Origin: Dehalococcoidia bacterium
GTDB lineage: Bacteria > Chloroflexota > Dehalococcoidia > Lucifugimonadales > GCA-2712585
DNA length: 64,000 nucleotides
Direction: 5' to 3'
NCBI GenBank assembly: GCA_965247585.1
Contig: CBDFHC010000004.1
Span: 66,554-130,553, forward strand
Shown here piece by piece: positions 8,256 to 45,136 of this stretch. The translations under genes were made by a program, and so were the position numbers. Every line of letters begins with the position of its first letter. The first letter of the stretch is position 1. The notes beneath the pieces were generated by a model, which saw nothing but the letters and a program-made list of their open reading frames with translations, had not been told where the DNA came from and did not search any database.

Positions 8256-8376
8256 CCCTCATCCCCCTCGGTCCCCCTTCTCCGGAGTAGAAGGGGGAAG
8301 AAAAACGAAGTTCTGAGGGACACCCTCAGACTCCCGGCAGGGAACCCAGGTTCCCTGCACCCTCCTGTACGGTTGG
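8256..8376 (+). repeat. Intergenic repeat cluster 4 (E2-like, B)
   Basis: cccccttctccggagtagaagggggaagaaaaacgaa, then B 8310-8376 with hairpin 2 gcagggaaccc/ggttccctgc at 8337-8358. Confidence 0.9.
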
Positions 8377-18022: not shown

Positions 18023-19186
18023 TCAGAGAAAGCGCTCGGGGCGGTAGGGCTGGAGCATCTCGACGCGGGCGCCGTCCAGGAGCTCGATGGCGGCTAGCTC
18101 ACCGACCAGTGGGGCGAGGGTAACGCCACTGTGCATGAGGGCCAGGTAGAGGTTGGGGACGCGCTGAGTGAAGCCGAGGACGGGAAAGCCATCGGCGGGC
18201 ATGGGGCGGAAGCCCAGGGGAACGGGGACGGCGGTGGCGGTGGCCAGGGCGGGGAGGAAGTGGACGGCCGAGTTTAGCAGGCGGTCGGCGTGCTGCTGGG
18301 AGTCGTCGCGGCGGAGGCTCTCCTGGGAGCCCTCGCCGATCATGACGATGCCGTCGTTGCCCTGGCGCAGGTGGATGCCGAAGTCGTTGCCAGCCAAGGC
18401 GGGGGTGTGAATGACGGCCACGGTTTGCAACACCCGGGGCTGGGGGTCGGTCCGCACGGTGACGCCAGGGCTCTCTTCCTGGGGAACGGTGACGCCAGCC
18501 ATGGCGGCTAGACGGGTGGTCTGGACGCCGGCGGCGAGGACTAGGGCGTCGCAGGGAACATCGCCGTTGGGGGTCTGCACCGAGGCCACGTGGGGGGTGG
18601 AAGCGCCGGAGGGGGCGAGACGCAGGCCCGTGACGGGGGTATTCGGGTGGATGGTTGCGCCACGAGCCACGGCGTCTTCCAGGCAGGCGCTAACGACCAA
18701 GGGAGGGTCCACCTGGCCATCTATGTCTCCCAGGGCGCCGAGAGAGACGGAGCCGGGGGCGAGGCCGGGCTCCAGCCGTCGCATCTCCGACTCGTCTACG
18801 ATGCGTGAGGGATAGCCGCGAGCCTGGAGTTGGGTGACGCGCTGGGCTATCTCTTCGGCGTCACGGGAGTTGCCAGCCCAGCGCAAGTCACCACCCCACC
18901 GCAGGCCGACGTTCCGGGGGAGGCGACGGGCGAAGCGGTCCCATACATCCATGGAGCGGCGGTTGAGGTCGTGGTAGGCGGCGGGCTCCTTGCCGAAGGA
19001 GTTGATCCAGGCGAAGGAGTGGCTGGACGCGCCGGCGCCGGGGGATGCGGCGTCGAGCACAGTAATCCTGGCACCGCGGCGGGCCAGGTGGAAGGCGATG
19101 GAGGCGCCAACGATGCCTGCGCCCGCCACGACGATATGGGGAGGGTTGCCTACTTTTTCTGGACCTATTCCTGTTGTCATGATCAT
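18023..19186 (-). CDS. FAD-dependent oxidoreductase (DAO family), copy 2
   Basis: 387 aa with an N-terminal dinucleotide-binding motif IVVAGAGIVGASIAFHLARRG. No obvious SD upstream. Confidence 0.8.
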   Translation of the reverse strand: MIMTTGIGPEKVGNPPHIVVAGAGIVGASIAFHLARRGARITVLDAASPGAGASSHSFAWINSFGKEPAAYHDLNRRSMDVWDRFARRLPRNVGLRWGGDLRWAGNSRDAEEIAQRVTQLQARGYPSRIVDESEMRRLEPGLAPGSVSLGALGDIDGQVDPPLVVSACLEDAVARGATIHPNTPVTGLRLAPSGASTPHVASVQTPNGDVPCDALVLAAGVQTTRLAAMAGVTVPQEESPGVTVRTDPQPRVLQTVAVIHTPALAGNDFGIHLRQGNDGIVMIGEGSQESLRRDDSQQHADRLLNSAVHFLPALATATAVPVPLGFRPMPADGFPVLGFTQRVPNLYLALMHSGVTLAPLVGELAAIELLDGARVEMLQPYRPERFL

Positions 19187-19447: not shown

Positions 19448-19912
19448 CTAGGCGAAGCGATTCTTGGCCCAGCCCTCATCGAACGGAGTGCGGAAGACGC
19501 GCTTGGAGCTCTTGCTCTTAAACTTCCACTTGCCATCGACGCGGACGTACTCCTCGTTGTCAATGCCGGCCATCCAGTGAGCCTTTCCATCATCGGCCAA
19601 AGTGCATGGGATGAGGCTGAGCCAGCGGCCCCAGGCGGTGTCGCCGTTCACTTCGATATGGGAGTTGGTGTTGTAATGGACAACGAATGTGATGGCGTTT
19701 CCGGCGCTCTTAAAATAGGCGCGGATGGCCTCCCGCCCCTCTATGATGGGAGAGCCTACAGCCTCCCATGTAGCGTCCTCAGTAAACATTTCGGCGATGG
19801 GGTCGGCCTGGTAGTTGTCATCGGCGAGGGCGCCGTAGTCGGCTTTGAGATTGCGGATGGCCTCGATGTCTTCGAGGGCCTGAATACGGGCCTCCAGGTC
19901 TTGAGCAGCCAT
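19448..19912 (-). CDS. SnoaL-like / NTF2-fold protein
   Basis: 154 aa. The N-terminal helix plus the cone-shaped alpha+beta pattern (IRNLKADYGALADDN..., FTEDATWEA) is typical of SnoaL_4/NTF2-like proteins. SD ggaaggtg. Confidence 0.65.
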   Translation of the reverse strand: MAAQDLEARIQALEDIEAIRNLKADYGALADDNYQADPIAEMFTEDATWEAVGSPIIEGREAIRAYFKSAGNAITFVVHYNTNSHIEVNGDTAWGRWLSLIPCTLADDGKAHWMAGIDNEEYVRVDGKWKFKSKSSKRVFRTPFDEGWAKNRFA

Positions 19913-20005: not shown

Positions 20006-21346
20006 TTAGATGGGAGGGGTGAGGGTGACGCCGAGGGCGGCTTCGCACCAAGAGGCGGCGGCGAGGAGACGGTCTTCGGCGAAGGGGGAGGCGGCGAGAT
20101 GGATTCCCAAGGGCAGGCCGGAGGCGGCGAGGCCGGAGGGGATGGTGATGACGGGGAGACCGGCGGATGTCCAAGGTCCCTGAAACATGGGGTTACCAGT
20201 GCTGGTGATTTCGCCGGGGGCGGCGGTGGGGGTGGAAGGGGTGAGGATGACGTCCGCCCTGGCGGTCATGTCCTGGACGTGGGTGATGAACTGGCGGCGG
20301 CGCTCCTGGGCCCGGGCATAAGAGAGGCCGTCCACCTCGAAGCCGCTAGCGATCATGCCTCGTATCTTGGGCTGGTAGTCCATGGCCTGCCGCTCGTACA
20401 TGGGCTGGTGGAAGGAGGCTGCCTCGGTGGTGAGGATGGTGAACTGGTCCACATAGGACTGGTCGAAGTCGGCGGGCGAGGTGACCTCTTCGACGTGGGC
20501 GCCGGCGCGCTCTAGCAGGCGCACCATTTCGGCGGTGTGGTCCCGGGTCTCCTGATCGGCATGGTTGTGGAAGTAGCCCTTGAGCACACCGATGCGCGGC
20601 GACGCTGGGTCCTTTATGGCGGCCATGTAGTCTGGCACCGGGAGGGTTGATGACATGTAGTCCTGGGGATCGTGGCCGGCGGTGGCCTGAAGCAGGAGGG
20701 CGATGTCCTCGACGGTGCGGGCCATCCAGCCGACGGTGTCGAAGGACCATGCGAGGGGGACGACGCCGTGGCGGCTGACGCGGCCGAGGGTGGGCTTGAT
20801 GCCGACGACGCCGTTGTAGGAGGCGGGCCGCAGGACGGAGCCGACGGTCTGGGAACCGAAGGCGAGGGGGCACATGCGGGCGGCGACGGCGGCGGCGGAG
20901 CCGCTGCTGGAGCCACCGGGGGTGTGGGCGGCGTTCCAAGGGTTGCGAGTGGGGGAGGGGTCCAAGGCGGCGAATTCGGTGGTGACGGCTTTGCCCAGGA
21001 TGACCCCACCAGCGGCCCTGGTGGCAACGACGGTGGTGGCATCGTAATCCGGGACGAAATCGGCGTAGACCTTGGAGCAGGCAGTGGTGGGGACGCCGGC
21101 GACGTGGTAGATGTCTTTGAAGCCGACGGGTATGCCGTGGAGGGAACCAGGGGAGGAGAGGTCGTCGCCTCGCTGGCGGGCCTCGGAGAGGACGGCCTCG
21201 CGATCGATATGGACCCAGGCGTGGAGCTTGGGCTCCAGGGCGTCTATTCGAGCCAGGAAGGATTCGGCAAGCTCCAGGGGCGAGAGCTCCCTGTTGCGAA
21301 TGAGTCGGACGGCCTGTGCAGCGGAAAGCTCATAAGGTTCTGCCAT
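20006..21346 (-). CDS. Amidase (amidase-signature family), copy 2
   Basis: Starts MAEPYELSAAQAVRLIRNRELSP. Motifs GFKDIYHVAG, GGSSSGSAAAVA, GSQTVGSVLRPA. SD aggagg precedes the ATG at 21346. The track ORF to 21544 runs into repeat module A and was trimmed. Confidence 0.9.
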   Translation of the reverse strand: MAEPYELSAAQAVRLIRNRELSPLELAESFLARIDALEPKLHAWVHIDREAVLSEARQRGDDLSSPGSLHGIPVGFKDIYHVAGVPTTACSKVYADFVPDYDATTVVATRAAGGVILGKAVTTEFAALDPSPTRNPWNAAHTPGGSSSGSAAAVAARMCPLAFGSQTVGSVLRPASYNGVVGIKPTLGRVSRHGVVPLAWSFDTVGWMARTVEDIALLLQATAGHDPQDYMSSTLPVPDYMAAIKDPASPRIGVLKGYFHNHADQETRDHTAEMVRLLERAGAHVEEVTSPADFDQSYVDQFTILTTEAASFHQPMYERQAMDYQPKIRGMIASGFEVDGLSYARAQERRRQFITHVQDMTARADVILTPSTPTAAPGEITSTGNPMFQGPWTSAGLPVITIPSGLAASGLPLGIHLAASPFAEDRLLAAASWCEAALGVTLTPPI

Positions 21347-21483
21347 GGGGTCCCTCCTAGAGGCTGATGGTGGCGGTCGCATGGTGCGGTGTTGGTGCTG
21401 ATGACCGCCTTTAAAGGCTTTCCTAAGGTAGCGATGGCCCATACTGTTGTCAAACGGCGAGGCCGATGACGGGGGAATCAGAC

Positions 21484-21628
21484 ATGGCGATGGGTATCGC
21501 CACGACGAAGGACTGAAAATCGAAGGTTGGTGGTTCCCACCCACCCGCCCAGGAAGGTCTTATAAAGAAGTTTGAGGGACACCCTCAAACTCCCGGCAGA
21601 AGGGCTCAGCCCTTTTGCACTCCCCGTA
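21484..21628 (+). repeat. Intergenic repeat cluster 12 (A, B)
   Basis: A 21484-21560 (ggcgatgggtatcgccacgacgaaggactgaaaatcgaaggttggtggttcccaccc...). B 21569-21628 (hairpin 2 cagaagggctcagcccttttg). Confidence 0.9.
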
Positions 21629-22884: not shown

Positions 22885-22900
22885 GGGTGGTTACACATAG

Positions 22901-22962
22901 GATTTGAGGGACACCCTCAAACTCCCGGCAGGGAACCTAGGTTCCCTGCACTCTTCTGTAGG
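22901..22962 (+). repeat. Intergenic repeat cluster 13 (solo B)
   Basis: gatttgagggacaccctcaaactcccggcagggaacctaggttccctgcactcttctgtagg, starting 17 nt after the stop codon. Confidence 0.9.
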
Positions 22963-23099
22963 CCCAGGGTTGGAAACAACCGACAATCTGTTCTTGGAAG
23001 AATCAGAGGAATAGTGTGGGCCTCACGGCACGCCAATTTGGCAAGTGAGTGGATAACTCCTTCGTCATAGGCCGAGTCACACGATGGAATATGAGGGGG

Positions 23100-23648
23100 T
23101 TAGGTGGGGAGGAGGGGGGCGACGCCCTCTGGCAGCTCCACCTCGAAGGCGTTGAGGTACTGGGCGACCAGGAGGTAGTGGCCGATGAGGCCAGTTACGT
23201 CTATGATGCCCTGCTCGCCAAAGCGGTCCTTGACGGCGTTGAAGGTCTGGCCAGTGACGGCGTGGTCTCGCAGCAGCTCCTGGGCGTAGCGGACCAGTAG
23301 CGCTTCGTCGCCGGAGAGGCCAGCGGGGGCGGTGCCATCCGTGAGGGCCTGGATAGTGGGCTCGGAGACGCCGGCCTCGCGGGCCAGGCGCGCGTGGGCG
23401 GTGAAGGCGTACTGGGCGCGGGCCTCCCGGGTGGCGGTGAGGATGACGACTTCTTTGAGGGCGTTGTCCATTTCGCACTCGAAGCGAAGGTAAGAGCCGG
23501 TGGCGCCGATGCGGGCGGCGAGCTTGGGGCTGTGGAGCATGACGCCGTAGGGTCCGGCGGCGCGGCCCCGTTTTTCAACAATCTGGTCGAAATAGGGCTG
23601 ATCTTCGGGCTTGAGCTGGTCCCGAGTGATGGAAGGTATGCGTGGCAT
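23100..23648 (-). CDS. Carboxymuconolactone decarboxylase (AhpD-like) family protein
   Basis: 182 aa. The N-terminus MPRIPSITRDQLKPEDQPYFDQI and the two-repeat helical pattern are typical of CMD-family proteins. SD aggagg. Last gene of the amidase-pair operon. Confidence 0.65.
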   Translation of the reverse strand: MPRIPSITRDQLKPEDQPYFDQIVEKRGRAAGPYGVMLHSPKLAARIGATGSYLRFECEMDNALKEVVILTATREARAQYAFTAHARLAREAGVSEPTIQALTDGTAPAGLSGDEALLVRYAQELLRDHAVTGQTFNAVKDRFGEQGIIDVTGLIGHYLLVAQYLNAFEVELPEGVAPLLPT

Positions 23649-23714: not shown

Positions 23715-25130
23715 TTACAGGGGCGGGCGGCGTTGGTGCCATTCGGTGGCGGCTTCGTAACCGGCGGCGGCGCGGAAGACGGTGACTTCATCGAAGGGCC
23801 TGCCGCCGATGTGGAGGCCGATGGGGAGGTTGTTGGAGGTGAAGCCGCAGGGGATGCAGATGGCGGGGAGGGCGGCGAGGGCGTGAAGGGTGGTGTAGGA
23901 GCGGGCGCCAAACTGGCGTTGGACGACGTCGTCGGTGCTGTCGAAGGGCCTTTTATCCGCGGCGATCTCGGGGGCGGGCCCGCTGCCGGGAGAGACCAGG
24001 ACGTCCACGGACTTCATGGCCTGCATCATTTGCTGTCGAAGGAGACCGCGGGCCTTCTGGGCGGTGAGGTGCCAATCAGCGGGTATGAGGGCGCCGGCCT
24101 GGAGGCGCATCCTGGTGGCGGCGTCGTATAGGTCCGAGCGGTTGCGGAGGTTGTCACGGTGGACGGCAGCGGCGTCGGTATCGAGGATGGCGATGGCGAT
24201 GGGGGCGGCCAGGGGCGCCAGGGGTATGGAGACGCGGTGCACAGATGCGCCCAATTCAGCAAATGTGGTGAGGGACTTTTCGATGGCTTCGTGGACCTCG
24301 GGGTCGTTGAGGCCAGGCTCCATCATCTCCTGGATGTAGCCGACGCGGAGCCCGTGGACGCCTTTATTCAAATCGGATGTGAAGTCGGGCACCGAGACGG
24401 TGGCGCTGGTGGGGTCGAGGGGGTCGTGGCCGGCGATAGCGTTCAAGATGAGGGCGCAGTCTTCCACGGTGCGGGCGAGGGGGCCAGCGATGTCCAGAGA
24501 CCAGGAGCCGGCCAACATGCCGTAGCGGCTGACTCGCCCGTAGGTGGGCCGAAGGCCGGCGACGCCGGACATGGCGGCGGGCAGGCGCACGGAACCTCCG
24601 GTGTCCTCGCCGATGGTGGCGGTGGAGAGAGAGGCGGCCACGGCGATGCCTGAACCAGCGCTGGACATGCCGGGATTCCTGTTCCGGTCCCAGGGGTTCC
24701 GGGGCTGGCCGTATGGGTGCTCCCGGGTGCCGCCAAGGGCAAATTCGGCCATGTTCAGCTTGCCCAAGAGGACGACGCCGGCTTCTTTAAGCTTTCTTAT
24801 AAGGGTGGAGTCTACGTCCGGCACGAAGTCAGCGAGGAGCCGGGAGCCGCCGGTGGTGAGGATGCCCCTGGTCCAGAACTGGTCCTTGACGGCCATGGGG
24901 ACGCCGTGCAGCGGACCTTTGCTGTGGCCGCGTTGGATTTCATCCTGGGCGGCGCGGGCGGAGGCGAGGGCGTCATCGGCGGTGAGGGTGATGAAGGCGC
25001 CCAGTGAGACGTCATATTGTTGAATTCGGTCCAAGTAAGCCTGGACGACTTCGACGGGAGTCAGGTCCCCTGAGGCGTACAGGCGTGCGAGGGCGGCGAT
25101 GGTCCAGGTGGTGGGTCCGGTGGCAGCCAT
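23715..25130 (-). CDS. Amidase (amidase-signature family), copy 3, paired with a GatC/AtzG-like small protein
   Basis: Starts MAATGPTTWTIAAL. Motifs MAVKDQF, a variant Ser-rich loop PGMSSAGSGIAVAA, and GEDTGGSVRLPA. Its ATG at 25130 is 1 nt from the stop of the small ORF at 25132. Confidence 0.9.
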   Translation of the reverse strand: MAATGPTTWTIAALARLYASGDLTPVEVVQAYLDRIQQYDVSLGAFITLTADDALASARAAQDEIQRGHSKGPLHGVPMAVKDQFWTRGILTTGGSRLLADFVPDVDSTLIRKLKEAGVVLLGKLNMAEFALGGTREHPYGQPRNPWDRNRNPGMSSAGSGIAVAASLSTATIGEDTGGSVRLPAAMSGVAGLRPTYGRVSRYGMLAGSWSLDIAGPLARTVEDCALILNAIAGHDPLDPTSATVSVPDFTSDLNKGVHGLRVGYIQEMMEPGLNDPEVHEAIEKSLTTFAELGASVHRVSIPLAPLAAPIAIAILDTDAAAVHRDNLRNRSDLYDAATRMRLQAGALIPADWHLTAQKARGLLRQQMMQAMKSVDVLVSPGSGPAPEIAADKRPFDSTDDVVQRQFGARSYTTLHALAALPAICIPCGFTSNNLPIGLHIGGRPFDEVTVFRAAAGYEAATEWHQRRPPL

Positions 25131-25131
25131 A

Positions 25132-25350
25132 CTAGGCACCTTCCTCCACGGGGAATAGGGGCAGGGGCTCCACCTGGCTGAGGTCCAAGGACTCCAGCTT
25201 GCGAAGCTCGCGCTGTAGGGCGGCAAGGCGGAAGGTAACCTCGTCCAACTCGGAGTCGTGGATGGAAAGGCCGACCAGCCGAGCGAGGCTGAGGATGTCT
25301 TCCCGGGTTATGTCGTTGGAATTGAGGGGCGAATTTGAGGATGCCATCAC
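25132..25350 (-). CDS. GatC/AtzG-like small subunit (72 aa)
   Basis: ITREDILSLARLVGLSIHDSELDEVTFRLAALQRELRKLESLDLSQVEP follows the N-terminal pattern of GatC (I..EEV..LA.LARL.I.EEE...F..QL..I......L...D...VEP). It lacks the C-terminal half of GatC. Immediately 5' of amidase copy 3. Confidence 0.7.
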   Translation of the reverse strand: MMASSNSPLNSNDITREDILSLARLVGLSIHDSELDEVTFRLAALQRELRKLESLDLSQVEPLPLFPVEEGA

Positions 25351-25447
25351 CAGTCCTTGAAGGAAAGTTCAGCGGATATTCCGGATAGGTTTTAGACCAA
25401 AGTCTGCGGAGATCAGGGGATCGAGAGGCTGGCAAAGGTTTCATAGA

Positions 25448-26881
25448 TCAAGCCAGACCTGCTACTTCGGGGAAGCGGCCCTGGAAGCCTGACACCTGCT
25501 CGTAGCCGTGGGCGACACGGAAGAGGAGGGCTTCTTTGAAGGCGCCGCCGATGAGCTGGAGTCCGATGGGGAGACCGGCTGAGTTGAAGCCACAAGGGAC
25601 TGTGATGGCGGGGAGGCCGGTGGCGTTGTGGACGCTGGTGTTCCTTGATACCTCGCCGGATCCGGGGCCACGGACCTGGAAACTACGGCCTCCCAGGGTG
25701 AAGGTTTCGGCGTCAATACGGGGAGCTACGACAGGCGATGTAGGGGTGACCAGGAAGTCAACCTGTTGCAGGATGCGGGCATGCTCCTCTTTGAGAAGGC
25801 GCTGGGCTTTTAGGGCCTTGGAGTAGTCCACGGCGCGGATGTACTGGCCGGCCAAAACGCGGTAGAGGACGGTGGGGCCGTAGTCCTTACGGTGGGTCTT
25901 AATGTAGGGCTCGTGGGCCACCAGGCTGTCGACGATGGCGACGCTACGGATGGCGGCGGCGTATTCCAAGGTGGGAATAGAAACGTCGACTGGTTCAGCG
26001 CCCAGCTCCTCCAGGGCGGCGATGGCCCTTCGCACGGAGGACTCAACCTCGGGGTCCACCAGATCGAAATGAAAGTTTGAGGGGATGCCCATCTTGAGGC
26101 CGCGGAGGCCCTGACCCAGGGCGGCGGTGTAGTCCGGCACTGGGACGGGGACGGTGCTGGGGTCCAGGGGGTCGTGGCCAGCTATGGCCTGAAGCACCAG
26201 TGCGCTGTCAGCGACGCTGCGAGTCATGGGGCCGATGTGGTCACCGTTGAAGCTGGTAACAAGGAGGCCACGCTGGCTGACGAGGCCGAAGGTCTGCTTG
26301 AGACCTACGACGCCGCAAAAGGTGCCGGGTAGCCGCACGGAGCCGCCGAGGTCTGTGCCCAGGGAGGCGAAGGTGACGCCGGCGGCGACGTTGGCACCGC
26401 CCCCACCGCTGGAGCCGCCGGGGACGTGGTCCAGGTCCCATGGGTTATGGACGGCGCCGTAGTGAAGGTTGTTAGAGGTGACGCCGGCGGCAAACTCTTC
26501 CAGGTTCTCTTTGCCAATGACGATGGCCCCAGCGTTTTGGCAGAGGGTGACGACCTGGGCGTCATAGTCGGGGACGTAATCGGGGAGGGCCACGGAGCCG
26601 ACAGTGGTGCGGATTCCGGCGGTGGCCATGTTGTCTTTGATGCCGATGGGGATGCCGTGGAGGGGGCCCAGGTATTCGCCGCGCATGAGGGAGTCTTCCA
26701 ACTCCCGGGCGCGCTGCCTGGCCTGGCCGCCGAGGATGGTGATGAAGGAATTGAGCTTGGGCTGCATGCGCTCGACGTGGGCCAGGGCGGCGTCGATGAG
26801 CTCAACGGGGGAGACGTCCCGGTTCCGAATTTTGGGCGCCAACTCCTGGATGGTCAGCTTGAGCAAATTGGTGTCAGGCAT
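25448..26881 (-). CDS. Amidase (amidase-signature family), copy 4, paired with a GatC/AtzG-like small protein
   Basis: 477 aa. Motifs IGIKDNMATAG, GGSSGGGGANVAAG, GTDLGGSVRLPG. Its ATG overlaps the small ORF's stop (TGATG). Confidence 0.9.
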   Translation of the reverse strand: MPDTNLLKLTIQELAPKIRNRDVSPVELIDAALAHVERMQPKLNSFITILGGQARQRARELEDSLMRGEYLGPLHGIPIGIKDNMATAGIRTTVGSVALPDYVPDYDAQVVTLCQNAGAIVIGKENLEEFAAGVTSNNLHYGAVHNPWDLDHVPGGSSGGGGANVAAGVTFASLGTDLGGSVRLPGTFCGVVGLKQTFGLVSQRGLLVTSFNGDHIGPMTRSVADSALVLQAIAGHDPLDPSTVPVPVPDYTAALGQGLRGLKMGIPSNFHFDLVDPEVESSVRRAIAALEELGAEPVDVSIPTLEYAAAIRSVAIVDSLVAHEPYIKTHRKDYGPTVLYRVLAGQYIRAVDYSKALKAQRLLKEEHARILQQVDFLVTPTSPVVAPRIDAETFTLGGRSFQVRGPGSGEVSRNTSVHNATGLPAITVPCGFNSAGLPIGLQLIGGAFKEALLFRVAHGYEQVSGFQGRFPEVAGLA

Positions 26882-27075
26882 CAGGACTCGTCTCCTTCCT
26901 GGACCTTGAGGAGCCGGGATGACATGACGCTGGAGAGGTCCAGGTTGTCCAGCGACCGGATGGCGGAGACGTAGCCGCGGACCTCCGGCAGAACAAGTTC
27001 GAGCTCTTCATCAGAAACTTCGATTCCGTGGAACTCGCGGGCGATGGCCTTGAGGGTTTCCTTGGAGACTTCCAT
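26881..27075 (-). CDS. GatC/AtzG-like small subunit (64 aa)
   Basis: VSKETLKAIAREFHGIEVSDEELELVLPEVRGYVSAIRSLDNLDLSSV shows the same GatC-like N-terminal pattern. Its stop overlaps the start of amidase copy 4 by 1 nt. Confidence 0.65.
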   Translation of the reverse strand: MEVSKETLKAIAREFHGIEVSDEELELVLPEVRGYVSAIRSLDNLDLSSVMSSRLLKVQEGDES

Positions 27076-27223
27076 GTCGTCACCTCATGTGGACTAGACG
27101 GGCGATGGAATGGAGGGAGGGGCTGCGTGCGGCGGAGTATAGCACGGAAGGTCCGAGCTTCTCCCCAGCGCCTTTTTTAGAAAGGGGACCGGTGAGGGCG
27201 AGAGGTTTGTCTGCTGCTGAGGT

Positions 27224-27499
27224 CTGCCAATCAAGGGTTGGTGGCGCCCACCTGCTCCAACGGCTGGGACGAAGGCGGTATGTGCTGGTCCTTCCCCTCG
27301 ACAAGGTCAGGATAAGCTTGGCCTCAGGGTGAGCAGGCCGGAGGCGTAGGAGGCTTGTTTTCATAGGAATGACATTTCTTGTTCGGACGCTCAACGCGGG
27401 GCAATGTGACGCATAAAAGCGGGCGAAACCAAAAACTGACGGCCTCTCAGACTCCCGGCAGCCACCACTCAGGTTCCCCGCACCTTCTTGTTTGGTTGG
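27224..27499 (+). repeat. Intergenic repeat cluster 14 (A variant, C-mid variant, C-right, degenerate B)
   Basis: Contains ccaatcaagggttggtggcgcccacc, ggtatgtgctggtccttcccctcgacaaggtcaggataagcttggcctcagggtgagcaggccggaggcgtaggaggc, ttgttttcataggaatgacatttcttgttcggacgctcaacgcgggg and ctcagactcccggcagccaccactcaggttccccgcac. Confidence 0.85.
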
Positions 27500-27616
27500 T
27501 CTTCGCCCTGCGCAGGGTGCGCTTTTCCAAAGCCCGGGCTGTCCCTTTGGGGGAGGAAGGTGTGTTGTTGGGAAGTGAGCGGAGGCACGGAAATAGCACC
27601 TAGGGTAGTAGCTACG

Positions 27617-27646
27617 TTGACTAGGGGTTACGGGCGAAACTAGACT
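27617..27646 (+). promoter_or_regulatory. Candidate sigma70-like promoter for the amidohydrolase gene
   Basis: ttgact (27617-27622), an 18-nt spacer, then tagact (27641-27646), about 78 nt upstream of the ATG at 27724. This is a motif match only. Confidence 0.25.
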
Positions 27647-27723
27647 ATCGCTATTCAGTAGTCGTGCCCGGGCCGGAGTAGAGCGGTCCGCCAGGGCGCG
27701 GCGGTGTTCGACGGAGGGCGGTC

Positions 27724-29756: not shown

Positions 29757-29770
29757 TAAGGGTAAGAATA

Positions 29771-29835
29771 GTTTCTGAGGGACTCCCTCAGCCTCCCGGC
29801 AGGGAACCCAGGTTCCCTGCACCCTCCTGTTTGGT
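29771..29835 (+). repeat. Intergenic repeat cluster 16 (solo B)
   Basis: gtttctgagggactccctcagcctcccggcagggaacccaggttccctgcaccctcctgtttgg, lying between convergent genes. Confidence 0.9.
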
Positions 29836-36567: not shown

Positions 36568-37974
36568 TTAGTCCACGGGGGGGCGGCGGTAGCCGCCGAT
36601 GCGGTCTTCCAGGGCTTTGGCGGCGCGGAGGACGGTTAGCTCATCAAAGTGGCGGCCGACGAGCTGGACGCCGATGGGGAGGCCATCAGAGCTCATGCCG
36701 AAGGGCACCGACATGGCGGGGGAGCCGGTGAGGTCCCAGGGCATGGTGGCACGGAGGGCGTGTCGGCTGGGCATCTCTTGCCCCTCGATGGAGAAGCTCC
36801 GCTGCTCGTGGGGGTAGGCGGGCATGGGGACTGTGGGGCAGAGGAAGAGGTCATAGCGGGTGAACCATTCGGCGACACCTTGCTTTAGGGCGTCCCATTT
36901 CAGGTTGGCCTCAAGGTAGTCGTTGAAGTCTTGGGGCGGGCTTTCTACGTAGCGGGTGCGGAGGAGGTTAGTGAGGTCCGCCTCGCGGCCCTGGACGATA
37001 GGCAGCAGGGCCTGCTTGCCCTCGGTGAGGTAGGTGACGGAGGAGATGAAGCTGGAATCGTTCTCCAGCATGGCAGGAATTTCAGTCTGCTCCACACTGA
37101 GGCCGGCGTCTTTCAGCGCCTGGGCGGCCTGGGCGACGGCCTGCTGAACCTCTGGGTCGGTGGGCAGGCCCATGGTGGGACTCCAGCCGACCTTGAGGCC
37201 GGAAAGCGAGACGTCCAGGTCCATATAGTCGGGGACTGGGACGGGGGGAGCGAAGGTATCGAGGCCGTCAGGGCCGGCGGTGATGGAAAGCTCCAGGGCG
37301 ACGTCGGCGACGGTGCGGGCCATGGGGCCGACGTGGATGGCGCGGAGGATGGCCTGGGGGAGGATGTGGGTGTAGGGGACGCGTCCCAGGGTGGGCTTGA
37401 GGCCGGCGAGGCCGCAGAAGGAGGCGGGCTGCCGGATGGAGCCGCCCAGGTCAGTGCCGACGCCCAGGGGGGAGAGGCCGCAGGCGAGGGCGGAAGCCTC
37501 GCCGCCGCTTGAGCCGCCCGTGGTTCGAGCCGGGTCCCAGGGGTTGGGGGTGAGGCCCCAGAGGAGGTTATCGGTCTGCCACCAGAGGGCGAACTCAGGC
37601 ATGTTGGTCTTGCCCAGGAGTATGCCGCCAGCGTTCTTAAGGCGGGTGTAGAGGGTAGCGTCGACGTCGGAGACGTACTCGTCGAAGAGCCTGGAGCCCA
37701 GGGTGGTGCGCATACCGGCCACCTGTACGCAGTCCTTCAGCGTGTAGGGGACACCATGGAGAGGGCCGAGGTTGTCGCCGCGCATAAGGGCGGCCTCGGC
37801 TTCTTTCGCCTGTGACAAAGGGTCTTCGGCGAAGATGACGATAGCGTTGAGCCTGGCGTTCAGGGCGTCAATGCGGTCGAGATGGGCCTGGACGACTTCG
37901 ACAGGAGAGAGCTGTTTGGTTCGAATCTTTTGGGCCAGCTCAACGGCGGGGGTGTAGTGGATTTCCTGAGTCAT
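36568..37974 (-). CDS. Amidase (amidase-signature family), copy 5
   Basis: 468 aa. Motifs YTLKDCVQVAG, GGSSGGEASALACG, GTDLGGSIRQPA. SD aaaggag. Its start lies 16 nt downstream of the soxB-like stop, so it is probably the last gene of the amine-oxidation cluster. Confidence 0.9.
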   Translation of the reverse strand: MTQEIHYTPAVELAQKIRTKQLSPVEVVQAHLDRIDALNARLNAIVIFAEDPLSQAKEAEAALMRGDNLGPLHGVPYTLKDCVQVAGMRTTLGSRLFDEYVSDVDATLYTRLKNAGGILLGKTNMPEFALWWQTDNLLWGLTPNPWDPARTTGGSSGGEASALACGLSPLGVGTDLGGSIRQPASFCGLAGLKPTLGRVPYTHILPQAILRAIHVGPMARTVADVALELSITAGPDGLDTFAPPVPVPDYMDLDVSLSGLKVGWSPTMGLPTDPEVQQAVAQAAQALKDAGLSVEQTEIPAMLENDSSFISSVTYLTEGKQALLPIVQGREADLTNLLRTRYVESPPQDFNDYLEANLKWDALKQGVAEWFTRYDLFLCPTVPMPAYPHEQRSFSIEGQEMPSRHALRATMPWDLTGSPAMSVPFGMSSDGLPIGVQLVGRHFDELTVLRAAKALEDRIGGYRRPPVD

Positions 37975-37989
37975 GGTTGCTCCTTTGGG

Positions 37990-39207
37990 TTAGTGGAGGG
38001 CGGCGGAGGAAGCGGCGCCTTTTTCGTTGACGAGACGGGAGTCGTCGAAGCGGGTGATATCGAAGGGCTTGATGAGGTCAGGGGTCTTGCCGGTGTCTAT
38101 AAGCTCGGCCATGGACTTGCCGGCGATGGGGCCGGACTTGAAGCCGTAGGTGCCCCAGCCGCAATTGAGGAGAAAGCCATCAATGCCGGGGACGGGCCCC
38201 ATGATAGGGGCGTAGTCCGGGGTCATGTCACATAGGCCGGTCCAGTGTCGAAGGACGTTGACCTTAGAAAGGGAGGGGAACATCTTGAGGGCGTGGGAGA
38301 CGAGATCTTCCAGCCGAGGGTGGGTAGACCTGACATTGTAGGCGGGGTAGTGGTCCACCGCGCCGCCGACCACCAGCTCGCCGCGGTCTGTCTGGTAGAC
38401 GTAGACGTGGAGGTTGGTGGAGGAGACGCCGGTCTTCAAGAAGGGTTTGAGGGGCTCAGTGACGAACGCCTGGAGGGGGTGGGTGACGATGGGGAGCTGG
38501 ATGTCCAGCATGGCGGCGATGGTAGATGACCAGGCGGCGGTGCAGTTGAGGACGACGCCGGCCTGAACATCGCCGCGGCTGGTGTGGACGCCGGTGACGC
38601 GGCCGTTGCTTCGGAGAAAGCCGGTGACCTCGGTGTGGGGGTGCACCTGGGCGCCCATTGCGTCGACGGCGCGGGCATAGCCCCAGACCACGGCGTCGTG
38701 GCGGATGACGCCGGCGGGGGGGTGGTAGAGGGCGGCCAGCACCGGGAGGTCCTGGCCCTCCCGCATGTCCAGCGGGGGGGCCATACGCTTGATTTCATCG
38801 GGGCCGATAATTCGGCTATCCACACCCATGGCGCGGTTGAACTCGGCGCGGATTCGGGCGGCGTAGATGGCGGACTCGGTGTGTGCCAGCTCCAGTCTGC
38901 CGAACTGGCTGAAAAGGAGGTTGTAGTCCAGCTCCTGGGCCAGGTCTTCGTAGAGCTTAAGACTCTCGTAGAAGAAGGGGATGCCCTGAGGAGTGACGTA
39001 GGTGGCGCGGAGGATGGCAGTGGAGCGGGCACTGGCGCCGCCGCCCAGGTAGCCCTTGTCCAGGAGGGCGACGTTGGTGATGCCGCGCTTGGCGAGGTAG
39101 AAGGCGGTGGCGAGGCCGTGGACGCCAGCGCCGATTATGAGAACGTCATAGTGACCTTTCAGGTCGTGGTGGCGCCACATTTTCTCTTTTCTAAATAGGC
39201 GGAACAT
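37990..39207 (-). CDS. soxB: Sarcosine oxidase beta-subunit family FAD oxidoreductase (N-methylglutamate dehydrogenase MgdA-like)
   Basis: 405 aa. YDVLIIGAGVHGLATAFYLAKRGITNVALLDKGYLGGGASARSTAILRA matches the SoxB N-terminus. An alternative ATG lies 9 codons in. Confidence 0.85.
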   Translation of the reverse strand: MFRLFRKEKMWRHHDLKGHYDVLIIGAGVHGLATAFYLAKRGITNVALLDKGYLGGGASARSTAILRATYVTPQGIPFFYESLKLYEDLAQELDYNLLFSQFGRLELAHTESAIYAARIRAEFNRAMGVDSRIIGPDEIKRMAPPLDMREGQDLPVLAALYHPPAGVIRHDAVVWGYARAVDAMGAQVHPHTEVTGFLRSNGRVTGVHTSRGDVQAGVVLNCTAAWSSTIAAMLDIQLPIVTHPLQAFVTEPLKPFLKTGVSSTNLHVYVYQTDRGELVVGGAVDHYPAYNVRSTHPRLEDLVSHALKMFPSLSKVNVLRHWTGLCDMTPDYAPIMGPVPGIDGFLLNCGWGTYGFKSGPIAGKSMAELIDTGKTPDLIKPFDITRFDDSRLVNEKGAASSAALH

Positions 39208-39254
39208 GGGTTTATTGGGAGGGTCCTAACGGACCCTTTCGACCAATTCCTTCA

Positions 39255-39308
39255 AAATTCCGCCAAAGAGGGCTATGCCCTCTCCGGACTCTCCCGATTT
39301 GCTCAGAC
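39255..39308 (+). repeat. Intergenic repeat cluster 20 (degenerate B)
   Basis: ccgccaaagagggctatgccctctccggactctcccgatttgctcag. This is a hairpin-2 region related to the copy at 17097 and a tail related to 45531. It sits inside the operon, between the soxG-like and soxB-like genes. Confidence 0.7.
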
Positions 39309-39311
39309 AAT

Positions 39312-40031
39312 CTAGGTTCCATTTAGGTGGTTGATTGAATCCAGGCCGACGGGTCTGACGCCGTCCGGGGGGGCGGCGTGGAGGAGGGCATCCCAGAGGT
39401 ACTCGCCGAAGTCGCGGGTCACGTATAGCTGGAAGGCAGGGAGGCCGCCCAGGTCGTTGCGGAAGATGAGTAGATGGACCTCGGCGGCCTTGCATTGGGC
39501 GCAAGCGCCGTTTGGGAAGACGGACGGGTCAAGGTCCAGCTCCACTAGCCGGGAAAGGAAGCGATGGGAGCGAGGGCCGGCGACGAGCAAACCGGCCAAG
39601 GAGGAGGTCTGGTCCACCAGGTGGGCGCAACCGTCCAACTGTGGCTGGAGCGCTTCCGTGGCGGCATGCACCTGGGTGGGGGGAGTAAGGAGCAGGGCTT
39701 CGTCGTAGGAGAGGCCGAGGGCGGTGAGGCCGTCGATGGCGGCACCGTCGCCGGTGGGGAGGACGGCGGGCTGGGATGAGCCAACGCGCAGCGGCGCGGG
39801 GAGGCTTAGGGTTGAGGTGAGCAGGCCAAGAGCGTGGTCACCCTGGAGATCAAGCTTCCCGTAGTGGCTGATGTCACAGATGCCGCCGGAATGTTGGAGC
39901 ACTTCCAGGTCATCTTCCAGCGAGGCGTATGCGGAGGGGAGATGCCAGCCGTGGTGGTCAGCCAAGGTGGCGCCGGCGGCACGGTGGGCGTGATGCATGG
40001 CAGAGCGTTTAAGGGGTGGTGCTATGGGCAT
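39312..40031 (-). CDS. soxG: Sarcosine oxidase gamma-subunit / GcvT-like folate-binding protein (MgdD-like)
   Basis: PLKRSAMHHAHRAAGATLADHHGWHLPSAY matches the GcvT/SoxG N-terminal pattern (LKR.PL...H...GA.....GW..P..Y). I trimmed to the ATG at 40031 because the track ORF extension translates repeat C-mid. No SD is visible upstream. Confidence 0.75.
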   Translation of the reverse strand: MPIAPPLKRSAMHHAHRAAGATLADHHGWHLPSAYASLEDDLEVLQHSGGICDISHYGKLDLQGDHALGLLTSTLSLPAPLRVGSSQPAVLPTGDGAAIDGLTALGLSYDEALLLTPPTQVHAATEALQPQLDGCAHLVDQTSSLAGLLVAGPRSHRFLSRLVELDLDPSVFPNGACAQCKAAEVHLLIFRNDLGGLPAFQLYVTRDFGEYLWDALLHAAPPDGVRPVGLDSINHLNGT

Positions 40032-40040
40032 TTGTTGGCT

Positions 40041-40467
40041 CGCGGTATGGGTTCGTCCTTCGAGGGCCTCAGGATGAGCGGGTTGAAGCGGCGGTTGGGG
40101 AATAGGATTGCTCCAGATAATCGAGCGGGAGAGGGCAGGCTGGAGTGGAATGAACGACACGGGATGCCGGGGTGGGACTTGCTCTCCCCCCACACCCAGA
40201 TTCTTCGAACCTCACGGACGGACTCAGAATGACATACAAACTGTCTGGAGCGTGGATATGGTGACGCGGGAAGGGTTAAGGGAGCCGTAGGGGATTTTAT
40301 CGAGGCAATCGGCCATGGCGATGGGGATAGCCACGACGAAGGACTGCAAATCACAGGTTGGTGGTGCCCACCCACCCGCCCAGGGAGGTTTCTAAAAGTT
40401 TTTCTGAGGGACACCCTCAGACTCCCGGCAGCCACCACCCAGGTCCCCTGCACCCTCCTGTGCGGCG
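40041..40467 (+). repeat. Intergenic repeat cluster 21 (C-mid, C-left, A, B) inside the operon
   Basis: C-mid 40041-40092, beginning 10 nt upstream of the soxG-like ATG. C-left 40175-40240, A 40313-40392, B 40399-40467 (arm-less hairpin-2 variant). Confidence 0.9.
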
Positions 40468-40503
40468 GTATGGATTGGAAGGGGACGGGGGTAATCATTG
40501 GGT

Positions 40504-43428
40504 TCATTCGCGGAGACGCTTCCCTTCGGGGTCGTAGGCGGGAGCGTCGCGGACGGTGGCGGGAGCGGTGCGGCCGTTGACCTGGATTTGCAGGGTGGTG
40601 CCATCTTCGGCCATATCGGCTGGCACCCAGGCCAGGCCGAATCCTTTGCCCAGGGTGGAGCTGAAGCGGGAACTGGTGACTTTGCCGACGGGTAGGCCAT
40701 CTTTCATTATAGGAACGCCGTCGGCGGGGATTTCGCCGTTGTCCATGACGAAGCCTACCAGCTTGTCGCGCAGGCCGCGGTCCTGGACGGCCTTGAGGGC
40801 GCTGCGACCGATAAAGTCTTCCTTATCGAAGCGGACGGCCCAGGACATGTCGGCCTCGAGGGGGTTGGAGACGACGTCGGTGTCCTGGCCAGGGATGATG
40901 TGCTTCTTCTCGAGGCGGAGGACGCGCTGGGCCTCGACGCCGAAGGGCATGATGCCGAACTCGCCTCCGGCGTCCATGAGGGCGTCCCAGAGGTGTTCAC
41001 CGTATTCCGAGGGGACGTGAATCTCCCAGCCGGTCTCGCCGACGAAGCCGATGCGCATCAGGATGGCAGGGACGCCGGCAACCTCCCCCGATGCGCTGCT
41101 CATGTAGCGGAAGGCGTCGGTGGTGAGGTCGACATCTGTGAGCTTGCGGAGGGTGTCCCGGGCGTTGGGGCCGGCGACGTTGATGGCGGCGAACCCCGGG
41201 GTGAGGTTGGTGACGTGGACGCACTTGCCGGTGCCCGCGCTCCACCAGCGGAACCACTGCTCCACCAAGTCTATGTTGCCGGTGCCGGTGGTGACGTAGT
41301 AGCGGTCCTCGGCCAGACGAGTGACGGTGCCATCGTCCAGGATGACGCCGGCGTCTGAGCAGATCATTCCGTAGCGGACCCTACCGACGCGCAGGTTAGA
41401 GAAGTGGTGGGTGTAGACCCGGTCCATGAGCCAGGGGGCGTCCTGTCCCTGGACGTCCAGCTTCCCCAAGGTGCTGACGTCAATGATGCCGACGCGCTCC
41501 CTAACGGCGCGGATTTCGTCTTCGGGAGGGCCGTAGGAGTGGGGGCGTTTCCACTCGCCGATCTCCACCATTTTGGCGCCCATCTCGACGTGGCGGTGAT
41601 GGATTGCGGTGAAGCGGAAGGGGAGGTGACCAGGCCCGGCGATGACGCCCATGGGCACGGGCTGGGCCGGTGGCCGGGAGGTGGTGGCGCCGGTGTCCGC
41701 CATGGACCTGCCAGTATCCACGGCGCAGATGCCGGCGAAGGCCTTGAGGCACATTTTGCCCTGGCAAGGCCCCATGGAGGTGGTGCTGTAACGTTTGAGG
41801 GTCTGAACCTCGTCGAAACCCTCCTCGATGGCCCAGTGGAGGTCTTTTTCGGTGACGTCCTCACAGACGCAGACGAATTTTTTACCCTGGGACTCAGGGA
41901 CAACGAGGTTGTGGCCAGCGGACAGGTTGGTGCGGTAGCTCCGCACCTTGTCAGATAGCTCGGCTTGTAAGGTGGCAAGCTCCTCGGCGGCGTGGCCGTC
42001 AGGGCCGTTTGCCAGGACAGAAAGGGCTTGGAGAGCTGCCAGCTTCCCCTGGCTGATGGCGATGTCAACGTTATGTATGCCGGTGACCTCTCCGGCGGCG
42101 TAAAGGCCGTCCTCCAAGAGGTGCGGAACGGACTCCCCAAGAAGGTCGTCATAGGCGAGGCGAGAGTCGCCCTGGGCGATGAGGGCGGTGGCGGGGTCGA
42201 AGCCGGCAGCGACGGCGATGAAATCGCAGCGGACGGTGGTCTGATCGCCAGTGAGCGCGCCGTCGTCGAGGCGAGCCAGAAGCGCCGCCGAAACACGCTT
42301 GACGCCGCGAGGCCGCCGGATGGTGTAGGGGGCGAGAACATCAACGCCGCGGGCGCGAAGGTCGTCTCGAAGCTGGGAGGGAACGTCGGGCGAACGGGAG
42401 TCGGCGACGGCGGAGACGGTGACACCGGCGTCGAGTAGCTCCAGGGCGGTTGCGAGACCCTGGTCATTGTTGGTGACGACGACGCCACGGCGACCGGGGG
42501 AGACGCCGTAGAGGTTGACCAACCTGAGGGCGGCGGAGCTGAGGATGATGCCCGGTATGTCGTTGTTGGGGAAGACCAACGGGACTTCCTGTGTGCCGGT
42601 GGCGACGACCAGGCTCTTGAAGCGGAGCTTGACCATCTCGGCGCCGCAGTTGACGCCCAGCAAGTTGCCTTCATAGAGGCCGTAGGCGGAGGCGTTGGAA
42701 AGGAGGGTGAGGTTGGGGAGGTCTTGCAACTGTTGGGCCAAGCGTCGGGCGATTTTATATCCCGGTTCGCCGCCGTGGTCACCAGCATCGGTGACGGGGC
42801 GGGTTAGGGCGAGGAGGTGACCGCCGATGGACGGCTGGTCGTCTATGAGGACGACGCGGAGGCCGCCGGTGGCGGCCTGGAGGGCGGCGGCGCAGCCGGC
42901 GGGGCCGCCGCCGACGACTGCTACGTCAGTGAAGAGGTTCCGGTTCTGGTACCCGGTCTCGTCCCGGGTGTCTGGACCAACTTTGCCGAGGCCGGCGAGA
43001 CGGCGGATGACGGGCTCGGCCAGGCGCCAGAGGAATTTAGGCTTGATGAGGGTCTTGTAGTAGAAGCCAACGGGGAGGAAGCGGTCCATGCGGTCGAGGA
43101 ACGAAAGGGCATCATGCTCCGGGGATGGCCAGGCGTTCTGGTGGTGAACCAGGGCGCCCTGTTCGGCGGTACGGGTACAGGTCCGGACGTTGGGCGTACC
43201 GTCCACGTTCATGAGGCAGTTGGGACATCGACCGGTGCAGCAGAGCGGCCCGCGGGGGCGGTGGTACTTGAAGCTTCGGCTGAGGATGTCTATACCGGAG
43301 GCGTACAGGGCGGAGGCGATGGTGTCGCCATGGAAGGCGGAAACAGACTTGCGGTTGTAGGAGAAGGTGACGACCTGGGAGCGGTCAATAGCCTGGGAAG
43401 GATGAGGGGGCAGCCGGTAGCCTGTCAT
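40504..43428 (-). CDS. soxA: Sarcosine oxidase alpha-subunit family protein (MgdC-like)
   Basis: 974 aa. N-terminal Cys cluster (CCTGRCPNCLMNVDGTPNVRTC), a central FAD/NAD Rossmann region (VAVVGGGPAGCAAAL) and a C-terminal GcvT-like aminomethyltransferase domain. Confidence 0.9.
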   Translation of the reverse strand: MTGYRLPPHPSQAIDRSQVVTFSYNRKSVSAFHGDTIASALYASGIDILSRSFKYHRPRGPLCCTGRCPNCLMNVDGTPNVRTCTRTAEQGALVHHQNAWPSPEHDALSFLDRMDRFLPVGFYYKTLIKPKFLWRLAEPVIRRLAGLGKVGPDTRDETGYQNRNLFTDVAVVGGGPAGCAAALQAATGGLRVVLIDDQPSIGGHLLALTRPVTDAGDHGGEPGYKIARRLAQQLQDLPNLTLLSNASAYGLYEGNLLGVNCGAEMVKLRFKSLVVATGTQEVPLVFPNNDIPGIILSSAALRLVNLYGVSPGRRGVVVTNNDQGLATALELLDAGVTVSAVADSRSPDVPSQLRDDLRARGVDVLAPYTIRRPRGVKRVSAALLARLDDGALTGDQTTVRCDFIAVAAGFDPATALIAQGDSRLAYDDLLGESVPHLLEDGLYAAGEVTGIHNVDIAISQGKLAALQALSVLANGPDGHAAEELATLQAELSDKVRSYRTNLSAGHNLVVPESQGKKFVCVCEDVTEKDLHWAIEEGFDEVQTLKRYSTTSMGPCQGKMCLKAFAGICAVDTGRSMADTGATTSRPPAQPVPMGVIAGPGHLPFRFTAIHHRHVEMGAKMVEIGEWKRPHSYGPPEDEIRAVRERVGIIDVSTLGKLDVQGQDAPWLMDRVYTHHFSNLRVGRVRYGMICSDAGVILDDGTVTRLAEDRYYVTTGTGNIDLVEQWFRWWSAGTGKCVHVTNLTPGFAAINVAGPNARDTLRKLTDVDLTTDAFRYMSSASGEVAGVPAILMRIGFVGETGWEIHVPSEYGEHLWDALMDAGGEFGIMPFGVEAQRVLRLEKKHIIPGQDTDVVSNPLEADMSWAVRFDKEDFIGRSALKAVQDRGLRDKLVGFVMDNGEIPADGVPIMKDGLPVGKVTSSRFSSTLGKGFGLAWVPADMAEDGTTLQIQVNGRTAPATVRDAPAYDPEGKRLRE

Positions 43429-43435
43429 TGTGCGG

Positions 43436-43699
43436 TCAGGCGTCCAGGCCCTGAGGCCAGAAGGTGCGGTCTATGCGGTTGGTGACGGAGTCTCGGTCCG
43501 CCATGAGCCAGCGGCGGCAGCCGTACTTGTGGTACCACCACTCGCACTGGACCGCAGCTTGGTTGGCGCGGTAGTAGAAGTATTTGGTCCAAGTATCCTC
43601 GGGAGCGTCAGGGGCAGGGCGGGTCTGGACCTCGCCGCCGAAGGTGAAGTCATAGGCGCTGCGTTCGCCGCAGTTGGGACAGGTGAGCAAGAAGGCCAG
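43436..43699 (-). CDS. soxD: Sarcosine oxidase delta-subunit family protein (MgdB-like)
   Basis: LLTCPNCGERSAYDFTFGGE matches the SoxD zinc-ribbon N-terminus (CP.CG.R...EF.Y.G). I propose a CTG start at 43699, 6 nt after SD aggaga. The track ORF (to 43780) would overlap the upstream gene's 3' end by 64 nt. The start codon is uncertain. Confidence 0.7.
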   Translation of the reverse strand: MAFLLTCPNCGERSAYDFTFGGEVQTRPAPDAPEDTWTKYFYYRANQAAVQCEWWYHKYGCRRWLMADRDSVTNRIDRTFWPQGLDA

Positions 43700-43716
43700 G
43701 GGTTGTCTCCTGTGCC

Positions 43717-45075: not shown

Positions 45076-45136
45076 GGTAGTTAGGGTCCCTCCCTTCTGC
45101 CTAGGCTGAGGTTTGTTGATGAACCTTGGAGGTGAG

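Follow-up and report, generated by a model that had tools for sequence, protein, structure and literature searches.

Organization of the locus

A contig of a Dehalococcoidia bacterium (CBDFHC010000004.1, assembly GCA_965247585.1) carries two tandem gene pairs, in each of which a very small gene stands directly upstream of an amidase-signature gene. We analyzed these pairs within a stretch of 64,000 nucleotides (nt) of the contig, which is called the window here. An earlier description of the locus, made from the sequence alone (the sequence-only reading), had proposed that the small genes encode truncated GatC-like miniproteins and that the pairs form heteromeric amidases of the AtzE/AtzG type, without gatB.

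All of the elements were found on the minus strand in the order mini1, amidase A, mini2, amidase B and a carboxymuconolactone decarboxylase/AhpD-like (CMD) family gene (Table 1), and the two small open reading frames (ORFs) lie directly 5' of the amidase genes as described earlier. The public collections record the exact products of 64, 71, 477, 471 and 182 amino acids (aa) as gene calls. An AGGTGA-type ribosome-binding site is located upstream of mini1, and mini1 meets amidase A in the sequence TGATG, whose A is shared by the TGA of mini1 and the ATG of the amidase (1-nt overlap). Amidase A is followed by a gap of 100 nt and then by mini2, which also has a ribosome-binding site. The TAG of mini2 is separated by one base from the ATG of amidase B at 25130, and a GGAGGAAGG motif was found upstream of this ATG. 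Both junctions, the TGATG overlap and the 1-nt gap, were thus read in the sequence as the earlier description gave them. The start of mini2 can be the ATG at 25347 (71 aa) or the GTG at 25350, one codon upstream (72 aa). The length of 72 aa given before holds for the GTG start, but the recorded product is the 71-aa form that begins at the ATG.

The two miniproteins show homology to one another, with 32% identity along 60 aa (E 3e-7), and the two amidases share 40% identity. The CMD gene, which had been noted after the amidases and was confirmed by a Pfam match, is co-oriented with amidase B, lies 66 nt downstream of it and possibly belongs to the same operon. The stretch that separates mini1 from the divergent Amidohydro_2 gene is presumed to be the promoter region; copies of two repeat families (D8 and D20) are located inside it at 27320-27449. 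A sigma-70 consensus scan of this region gave no minus-strand match, and the promoter and terminator scans of the operon gave a signal at the background level.

Table 1. Features of the window (positions in the 64,000-nt stretch), those of the gene pairs first
Feature	Position	Strand	Details
mini1, truncated GatC-like miniprotein, proposed small subunit of amidase A	26881-27075	-	64-aa ORF
Amidase A, amidase-signature hydrolase, SAR202/Dehalococcoidia-wide clade	25448-26881	-	477 aa; Pfam PF01425, E 1.5e-111
mini2, truncated GatC-like miniprotein, proposed small subunit of amidase B	25132-25347	-	71-aa ORF
Amidase B, amidase-signature hydrolase, variant loop PGMSSAGSG	23715-25130	-	471 aa; Pfam PF01425, E 9.5e-112
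CMD (carboxymuconolactone decarboxylase/AhpD-like) gene	23100-23648	-	182 aa; Pfam CMD 27.4 bits, cut-off 23
Non-coding region between mini1 and divergent Amidohydro_2 gene	27076-27723		~650 nt; no family-supported ORF
Third amidase	20006-21346	-	no mini upstream
SnoaL_4 (NTF2-like) gene after third amidase	19448-19912	-
DAO oxidase gene after SnoaL_4 gene	18023-19186	-
N-methylglutamate-pathway-like cluster	36568-49379	-
Fifth amidase	36568-37974	-	no mini; at end of N-methylglutamate-like cluster
DAO	37990-39207	-
GCV_T	39312-40193	-
Sarcosine-oxidase-alpha-like	40504-43428	-
Glutamine-synthetase-like	43717-45075	-
Glu_synthase domain	45689-47275	-
GATase class II	47711-48679	-
250-aa ORF	48627-49379	-
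Thiamine pyrophosphate (TPP) riboswitch	1836-1951	-	Rfam RF00059, 57.7 bits; upstream of thiG (992-1783) and thiE (320-991)

The miniproteins correspond to the N-terminal half of GatC

In GatC, the N-terminal helices wrap GatA and the C-terminal half contacts GatB. Our results showed that the homology of the miniproteins to GatC is confined to its N-terminal half. An exhaustive search with a profile of the two minis and their close relatives found 185 clusters (counted at 50% identity) at E<=1e-3, mostly of 55-75 aa, and it also retrieved canonical GatC proteins of 95-104 aa at E 1e-6 to 2e-4. A profile of 105 short proteins matched the GatC chains 3h0l_C, 4wj3_C and 2df4_C of the PDB (E 2.5-6e-6) over GatC residues 1-55. 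When the mini family was aligned by hhalign with 18 full-length GatCs, the probability was 98.5% (E 3.4e-15) and the match was colinear, with mini columns 4-56 on GatC columns 3-55 of 110. The AlphaFold2 (AF2) model of mini2 has a predicted local distance difference test score of 84, with helices at residues 15-24 and 31-53, and is confident over residues 11-60. In a Foldseek search of this model against the PDB, GatC chains took ranks 1-7, yeast GatF came next and AtzG (6c62_C) was at rank 11. The minis are assigned to the N-terminal half of GatC because the matches of the profile search and of hhalign stop at about GatC residue 55 and the best fold matches are GatC chains.

The C-termini of the minis lie 1-10 residues past the LDLS-x-VEP region. 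The full-length GatCs recovered here have 95-117 aa and all end with F-x-V-P-K-V, whereas the minis lack the C-terminal 40-50 residues of GatC including this end. The GatC-like helix-turn-helix pattern is kept over at least 185 clusters. The claim that the miniproteins are GatC-like and without the C-terminal half therefore holds at the level of the family, though the single minis stay below the curated cut-offs. In the NCBIfam search mini1 had no match to the gatC model TIGR00135, and mini2 matched it with 16.2 bits (cut-off 47.1) over model positions 1-50 of 93 only. Neither of them matched Pfam GatC (PF02686) at E<=0.1.

Two apparent fusions of the GatC front part with the GatA N-terminus were also seen in the protein collections. 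P0149 (143 aa) was considered as a natural fusion and rejected, as it is a singleton fragment whose relatives are ordinary 107-aa GatCs of Acidobacteria. P0171 (212 aa) is built in a similar way. Judged by their relatives, which are these ordinary GatCs, both are probably frameshift or assembly artefacts.

The miniprotein and the amidase are inherited as a unit

Relatives of the two pairs were collected by a genome scan with amidase A (80 loci) and a metagenome scan with amidase B (80 loci). The amidase A orthologues have 67-76% identity and come nearly all from metagenome-assembled genomes (MAGs) of Dehalococcoidia, SAR202 and Chloroflexota. A mini is located directly upstream in 73 of these 80 loci. 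Of the 74 mini-amidase A junctions, 60 have a stop and a start that share 1, 8 or 11 nt. The relatives of amidase B range from 97% down to 30% identity. Those of 49-97% identity have a mini2-type ORF in every case where upstream sequence is available. A third amidase clade (L099-L106, 41-45% identity to amidase B) has minis of 54-59 aa, often with a 4-nt overlap, and the loci at 36-41% identity are gatC-gatA operons with a GatC of 95-117 aa, two of which (L114 and L121) have gatB downstream. Four further members of the mini family, taken from the exhaustive search, have downstream sequence, and in 4/4 the mini is followed within 0-3 nt by the start of an amidase. The coupling of the small ORFs to amidase genes, which had been noticed at this one locus, is conserved among the relatives of both pairs.

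The minis of clade A are of the ...S-x-R-L-L-R...E-G-G type and those of clade B of the ...V/I-E/Q-P-x-P/x-x-F-P type. The mini subfamilies follow the amidase clades, and therefore the cassette is inherited as a unit. The median pairwise ratio of nonsynonymous to synonymous substitution rates (dN/dS) of the mini is 0.25 at dS ~1.26, so the peptide is under purifying selection. The lineage occurs widely, both in Chloroflexota and in metagenomes from soil and marine samples.

These data bear on the explanation that the small ORFs are vestigial or purely regulatory upstream ORFs, that is, leaders for translational coupling whose peptide has no function. Overlapping stops and starts are characteristic of translational coupling, there are paralogues and related clades that manage without a mini, and the minis of the window give no significant match to a curated model. 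A functionless peptide is nevertheless quite improbable, since it would hardly show the purifying selection described above, keep the helix-turn-helix pattern of GatC over so many clusters, give a confident AF2 model over most of its length and co-diverge in subfamilies with the amidase clades.

The tandem arrangement of A and B was seen only in the close relatives L001, L096 and L115. The pair had been described as duplicated head to tail. Two homologous cassettes do stand in tandem, but they are not the product of a recent duplication, because their amidases fall in two clades that diverged long ago, and each clade has a mini subfamily of its own. The tandem consists of two old paralogous cassettes side by side.

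Both amidases lie outside the canonical GatA clade

The columns of the Lys/cis-Ser/Ser triad are invariant in all amidase clades, A and B included. In the NCBIfam search both amidases scored below every cut-off: TIGR00132 (GatA) gave 341.4 bits for amidase A and 330.8 for amidase B (cut-off 481.1), NF006631 (AtzE family) gave 312 and 323 (cut-off 461), and TIGR02715 gave 295 and 318 (cut-off 425.75). The best stretch of the TIGR00132 match covered model positions 4-306 only, and the C-terminal half was matched weakly.

The phylogeny was obtained as a neighbour-joining tree of 103 amidases, which is a distance method with limited sampling. The canonical GatA clade was defined by its neighbours, a full-length GatC upstream and/or GatB downstream (L114, L121). 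It contained 17 sequences with a bootstrap of 99/100, and amidases A and B were both outside it. The amidase A clade had a bootstrap of 100/100 and the amidase B clade 99/100. Amidase clades without a partner lie between them, and AtzE is further out, outside the grouping of GatA, A and B.

The residues of Staphylococcus aureus GatA that bind its substrate glutamine are Tyr309, Arg358 and Asp425 (bioRxiv 10.1101/733030). Equivalents of each were present in 17/17 sequences of the GatA clade. The amidase A clade has Arg at the Tyr309 position and keeps the equivalent of Arg358. The amidase B clade has Ala, Phe or Tyr at the Tyr309 position, keeps the Arg358 equivalent and has Arg at the Asp425 position in 12/12. 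AtzE shows the same pattern, in which only the Arg of the three GatA substrate residues is left. The variant Ser-rich loop PGMSSAGSG, which had been noticed in amidase B, is indeed present there and is a trait common to its clade (G[M/E/A]SS[A/S]GS), with the catalytic serines retained. The tree, the model scores and the replaced Tyr309 and Asp425 equivalents agree in that the amidases are not canonical GatA.

Consistent with the sequence-only reading, no gatB was found in the 64-kb window when the bona fide GatB of L114 was used in tblastn (best E 0.5).

Comparison with known GatC-derived pairs

The pairs resemble GatC-GatA in several respects. The mini is colinear with GatC residues ~3-55, the small gene is placed immediately 5' of the amidase gene as in gatC-gatA, the best matches of the amidases among solved structures are GatA, and the triad and the Arg358 equivalent are kept. 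They differ from it in that the minis have 60-75 aa and lack the GatB-contacting half, in that the window contains no gatB and the amidases fall outside the GatA clade and under the TIGR00132 cut-off, and in that the Tyr309 and Asp425 equivalents are replaced and two different cassettes stand in tandem.

In 2018 AtzG was reportedly recognized as an 'unexpected vestigial' remnant of GatC on which one amidase of a herbicide pathway depends, and to our knowledge clusters related to AtzG have been described only in Proteobacteria. AtzG has no catalytic role and is bound to AtzE in an obligate complex, AtzE is not soluble when AtzG is absent, and the AtzE/AtzG pair is thought to be derived from GatCA (PMC6219798). 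The AtzE-AtzG system of Pseudomonas sp. ADP (PDB 6C62) has, like the pairs of the window, a gene of ~60-70 aa directly upstream of a GatA-like amidase and no GatB, and the amidases of both keep only the Arg of the three GatA substrate residues. At the sequence level the likeness is remote. When the mini family was compared with an AtzG alignment by hhalign, the match was weak (probability 74%, E 2.7e-5, 56 colinear columns), and the AtzG chain 6c62_C had a Foldseek probability of 0.25. BLAST of the minis against AtzG found no significant similarity, the one match being of 7 residues with E 0.65. The minis of the window did not match the Pfam AtzG-like model PF13318, which was matched weakly by 7 of 105 mini-family members (best E 2e-5). 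AtzG and GatC themselves were aligned by hhalign with a probability of 2.9%. As the mini family matches GatC strongly and AtzG remotely, and AtzG hardly matches GatC, the family stands between GatC and AtzG and much nearer to GatC.

Unlike AtzE, the amidases of the window are ~140 bits under the AtzE-family cut-offs (NF006631), and AtzE is separated from GatA, A and B in the tree. No atzH (DUF3225) gene follows the cassettes of the window, and the host belongs to Chloroflexota, whereas the atzG-atzE-atzH clusters are in Proteobacteria. HpxX/HpxY pairs (NF033624, NF006631) also combine a small partner with an amidase in a nitrogen-catabolic cluster, as far as the function of HpxX/Y can be taken from database names. 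AtzG weakly matches the HpxX model NF033624, but the minis of the window had no match to it even at E<=10, and the amidases are under the NF006631 cut-off. The AtzE/AtzG-type assignment thus stands for the architecture, a GatC-derived mini 5' of an amidase with no gatB in the window. It does not extend to the families, as the profile models place the amidases outside the AtzE family and the minis outside the AtzG-like and HpxX families, with a weak likeness to AtzG at the profile level. The cassettes are best filed as a new family, or new families, of the kind made of a GatC-derived small subunit and a GatA-like amidase, distinct from AtzEG and closer to GatCA.

A stand-alone heteromeric amidase is the probable function

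Taken as a whole, the data make it likely that the two pairs are stand-alone heteromeric amidases with a non-catalytic, GatC-derived small subunit. The mini would come from the GatA-binding N-terminal half of GatC and would be translated together with the next amidase gene through the overlapping or abutting stop and start. It would wrap its amidase as the N-terminal helices of GatC wrap GatA and as AtzG binds AtzE, and its binding would stabilize or solubilize the amidase. We infer both the physical complex and the stabilizing role by analogy with these two systems. The complexes would be Ser-cisSer-Lys hydrolases that free ammonia from small amides. Since the half of GatC that contacts GatB has been lost, and so have the residues for glutamine recognition, the pairs would be stand-alone hydrolases and not the glutaminase modules of an amidotransferase.

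The ancestral role of GatA is the production of ammonia for a partner enzyme, and the window is rich in nitrogen-handling genes (glutamine-synthetase-like, GltB-like, GATase class II and aminotransferases). Both points favor the idea that the GatCA-like amidase channels ammonia to a synthetase partner other than GatB. Such a module is very improbable here, since no third gene is conserved beside the pair over the 80+80 loci, with highly variable neighbourhoods, the missing part of GatC is exactly the bridge to the partner subunit, and AtzEG, the only characterized analogue, is a simple hydrolase (PMC6219798).

Scarcely credible is the explanation that the pairs are a divergent but genuine GatC and GatA of the host's tRNA-dependent amidotransferase with gatB encoded elsewhere: although the best PDB sequence matches are GatA (E 1e-80 to 1e-86, versus 1e-60 for AtzE), TIGR00132 is the top NCBIfam match of both amidases, amidase A is kept class-wide at a high identity and sometimes stands beside genes that look like housekeeping genes by sequence appearance (accD-, mrp- and tilS-like), and the gatB search covered 64 kb of the genome, the amidases are ~140-150 bits under the GatA cut-off with a weak match in the C-terminal half, both are placed outside the well-supported GatA clade, their glutamine-binding Tyr309 and Asp425 equivalents are replaced (the Tyr position being variable in B), the minis are without the GatC C-terminal half and its F-x-V-P-K-V end, gatB was not found in the 64 kb, and one operon holds two different such pairs. 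The earlier view that the pairs are not tRNA-dependent amidotransferases agrees with the tree position, the residue losses, the truncated GatC and the lack of gatB in the window.

Several observations weigh against the stand-alone heteromeric amidase. The negative result for gatB is confined to the 64-kb window of the source genome. Taken singly, both minis of the window fail the Pfam and NCBIfam models for GatC and AtzG-like proteins. Six close relatives of amidase A (L022, L036, L037, L060, L065 and L076) have no adjacent mini; among them, L036 shares the Dehalococcoidia chromosome record OZ241919.1 with the mini-bearing L017, and L037 shares OY761541.1 with L016. An adjacent partner in cis is therefore not universally required, and in several related amidase clades a small partner is absent altogether. 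The substrate assignment given below rests on three alignment columns, and one of them, the Asp425 position in the amidase A clade, depends on the alignment, being Ser by MAFFT and Glu by HMMER.

The mini-less copies of amidase A form their own subclade and are located after unrelated genes. They may use a mini in trans or have become independent of it.

For the substrate, the retained Arg358 equivalent suggests carboxylate-bearing amides. Amidase B probably takes a different and more anionic substrate than amidase A, because a second Arg replaces the Asp425 of GatA. The unstable carboxy-amide or ureido substrate that had been proposed before is a speculation, and its one support is the same retained Arg358 equivalent.

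Implications for the evolution of GatCA-derived amidases

We regard it as possible, with somewhat more doubt than confidence, that the truncated-GatC minis mark a large undescribed radiation of GatCA-derived two-subunit amidases (at least three clades, at least 185 mini clusters and nearly all of the 80 Dehalococcoidia/SAR202-type MAG loci), perhaps as an evolutionary intermediate and with the amidase A pair perhaps as a core enzyme. If this is true, the mini family may be an intermediate for the repeated detachment of GatCA from GatB into catabolic hydrolases, and abundant marine and sponge-associated Chloroflexota may have in the amidase A pair a core enzyme, class-wide in its spread, for the scavenging of organic nitrogen. 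The intermediate place of the mini family in the hhalign comparisons, with 98.5% to GatC and 74% to AtzG, supports the proposed evolutionary route. By analogy, Chloroflexota would have the same solution as AtzE/AtzG, in which a hydrolase derived from GatA has the front half of GatC as its chaperone-like subunit.

The curated GatC, AtzG-like, GatA and AtzE models do not capture the families of the window, and automated annotation may call the amidases GatA, overlook the small ORF or give it a wrong label. In practice, co-expression of the miniprotein may be needed to keep such amidases soluble. The enzymes stand in organic-nitrogen catabolic neighbourhoods, and the titles of the MAG records place the bacteria in marine samples (e.g. 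ALOHA, ETNP, SAR202).

Genomic neighbourhood and other features of the window

The window contains many genes for organic nitrogen: five amidases, five DAO-family oxidases, two class-III aminotransferases, an M20 peptidase and GGT. PTE and Amidohydro_2 genes, luciferase-like monooxygenases and an N-methylglutamate-pathway-like cluster, which ends with the fifth amidase, are also present (Table 1). The neighbourhood was considered as a clue to the substrate and rejected, as the genes that flank the 160 related loci vary greatly and only L001, a close relative, has the CMD gene in synteny. Downstream of other loci of the amidase B clade we found isochorismatase, alpha/beta hydrolase and flavin adenine dinucleotide (FAD) oxidase genes. 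Besides the housekeeping-looking genes named above, which are so called by sequence alone, a polysaccharide-deacetylase-like gene and GMC and molybdenum (Mo)-hydroxylase oxidoreductases occur beside related loci.

At two loci of the third amidase clade, both from soil metagenomes, a 59-aa mini and its amidase (L099 2280-3901, L101 4798-6419) lie between two Rieske/LigXa-type oxygenase genes, with a Mo-hydroxylase, a LigB extradiol dioxygenase and a UbiD decarboxylase nearby. By its gene content, this looks like a catabolic cluster for aromatic or N-heterocyclic amides.

The third amidase of the window is followed by a SnoaL_4 gene and a DAO oxidase gene (Table 1). The order of an amidase and an NTF2-fold gene recalls atzE-atzH, and the synteny is kept in L001. 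The SnoaL_4 gene was rejected as an AtzH analogue, since it has no DUF3225 match and the third amidase has no mini.

Short repeat families were found in almost every intergenic region of the window. In one of them (~15 copies), a GC-rich hairpin comes after the core TCTGAGGGACACCCTCAGACTCCCGGCAG. Another (13 copies) has CAGGTTGGTGGTNCCCACC at its end, and further families are D8, D11, D14 and D17. Examples are located at 2161-2232, 8301-8372, 22892-22963, 29763-29834, 45201-45272 and 56338-56409, at 21466-21545, and in the region upstream of mini1 at the positions given above. These repeats form a dense system in the genome that resembles repetitive extragenic palindromes (REP) or miniature inverted-repeat transposable elements (MITE). 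The G+C content of the window is ~0.63. Its GC skew, (G-C)/(G+C), is +0.12 to +0.30 in every 2-kb segment whichever strand the genes are on, which is unusually large and uniform.

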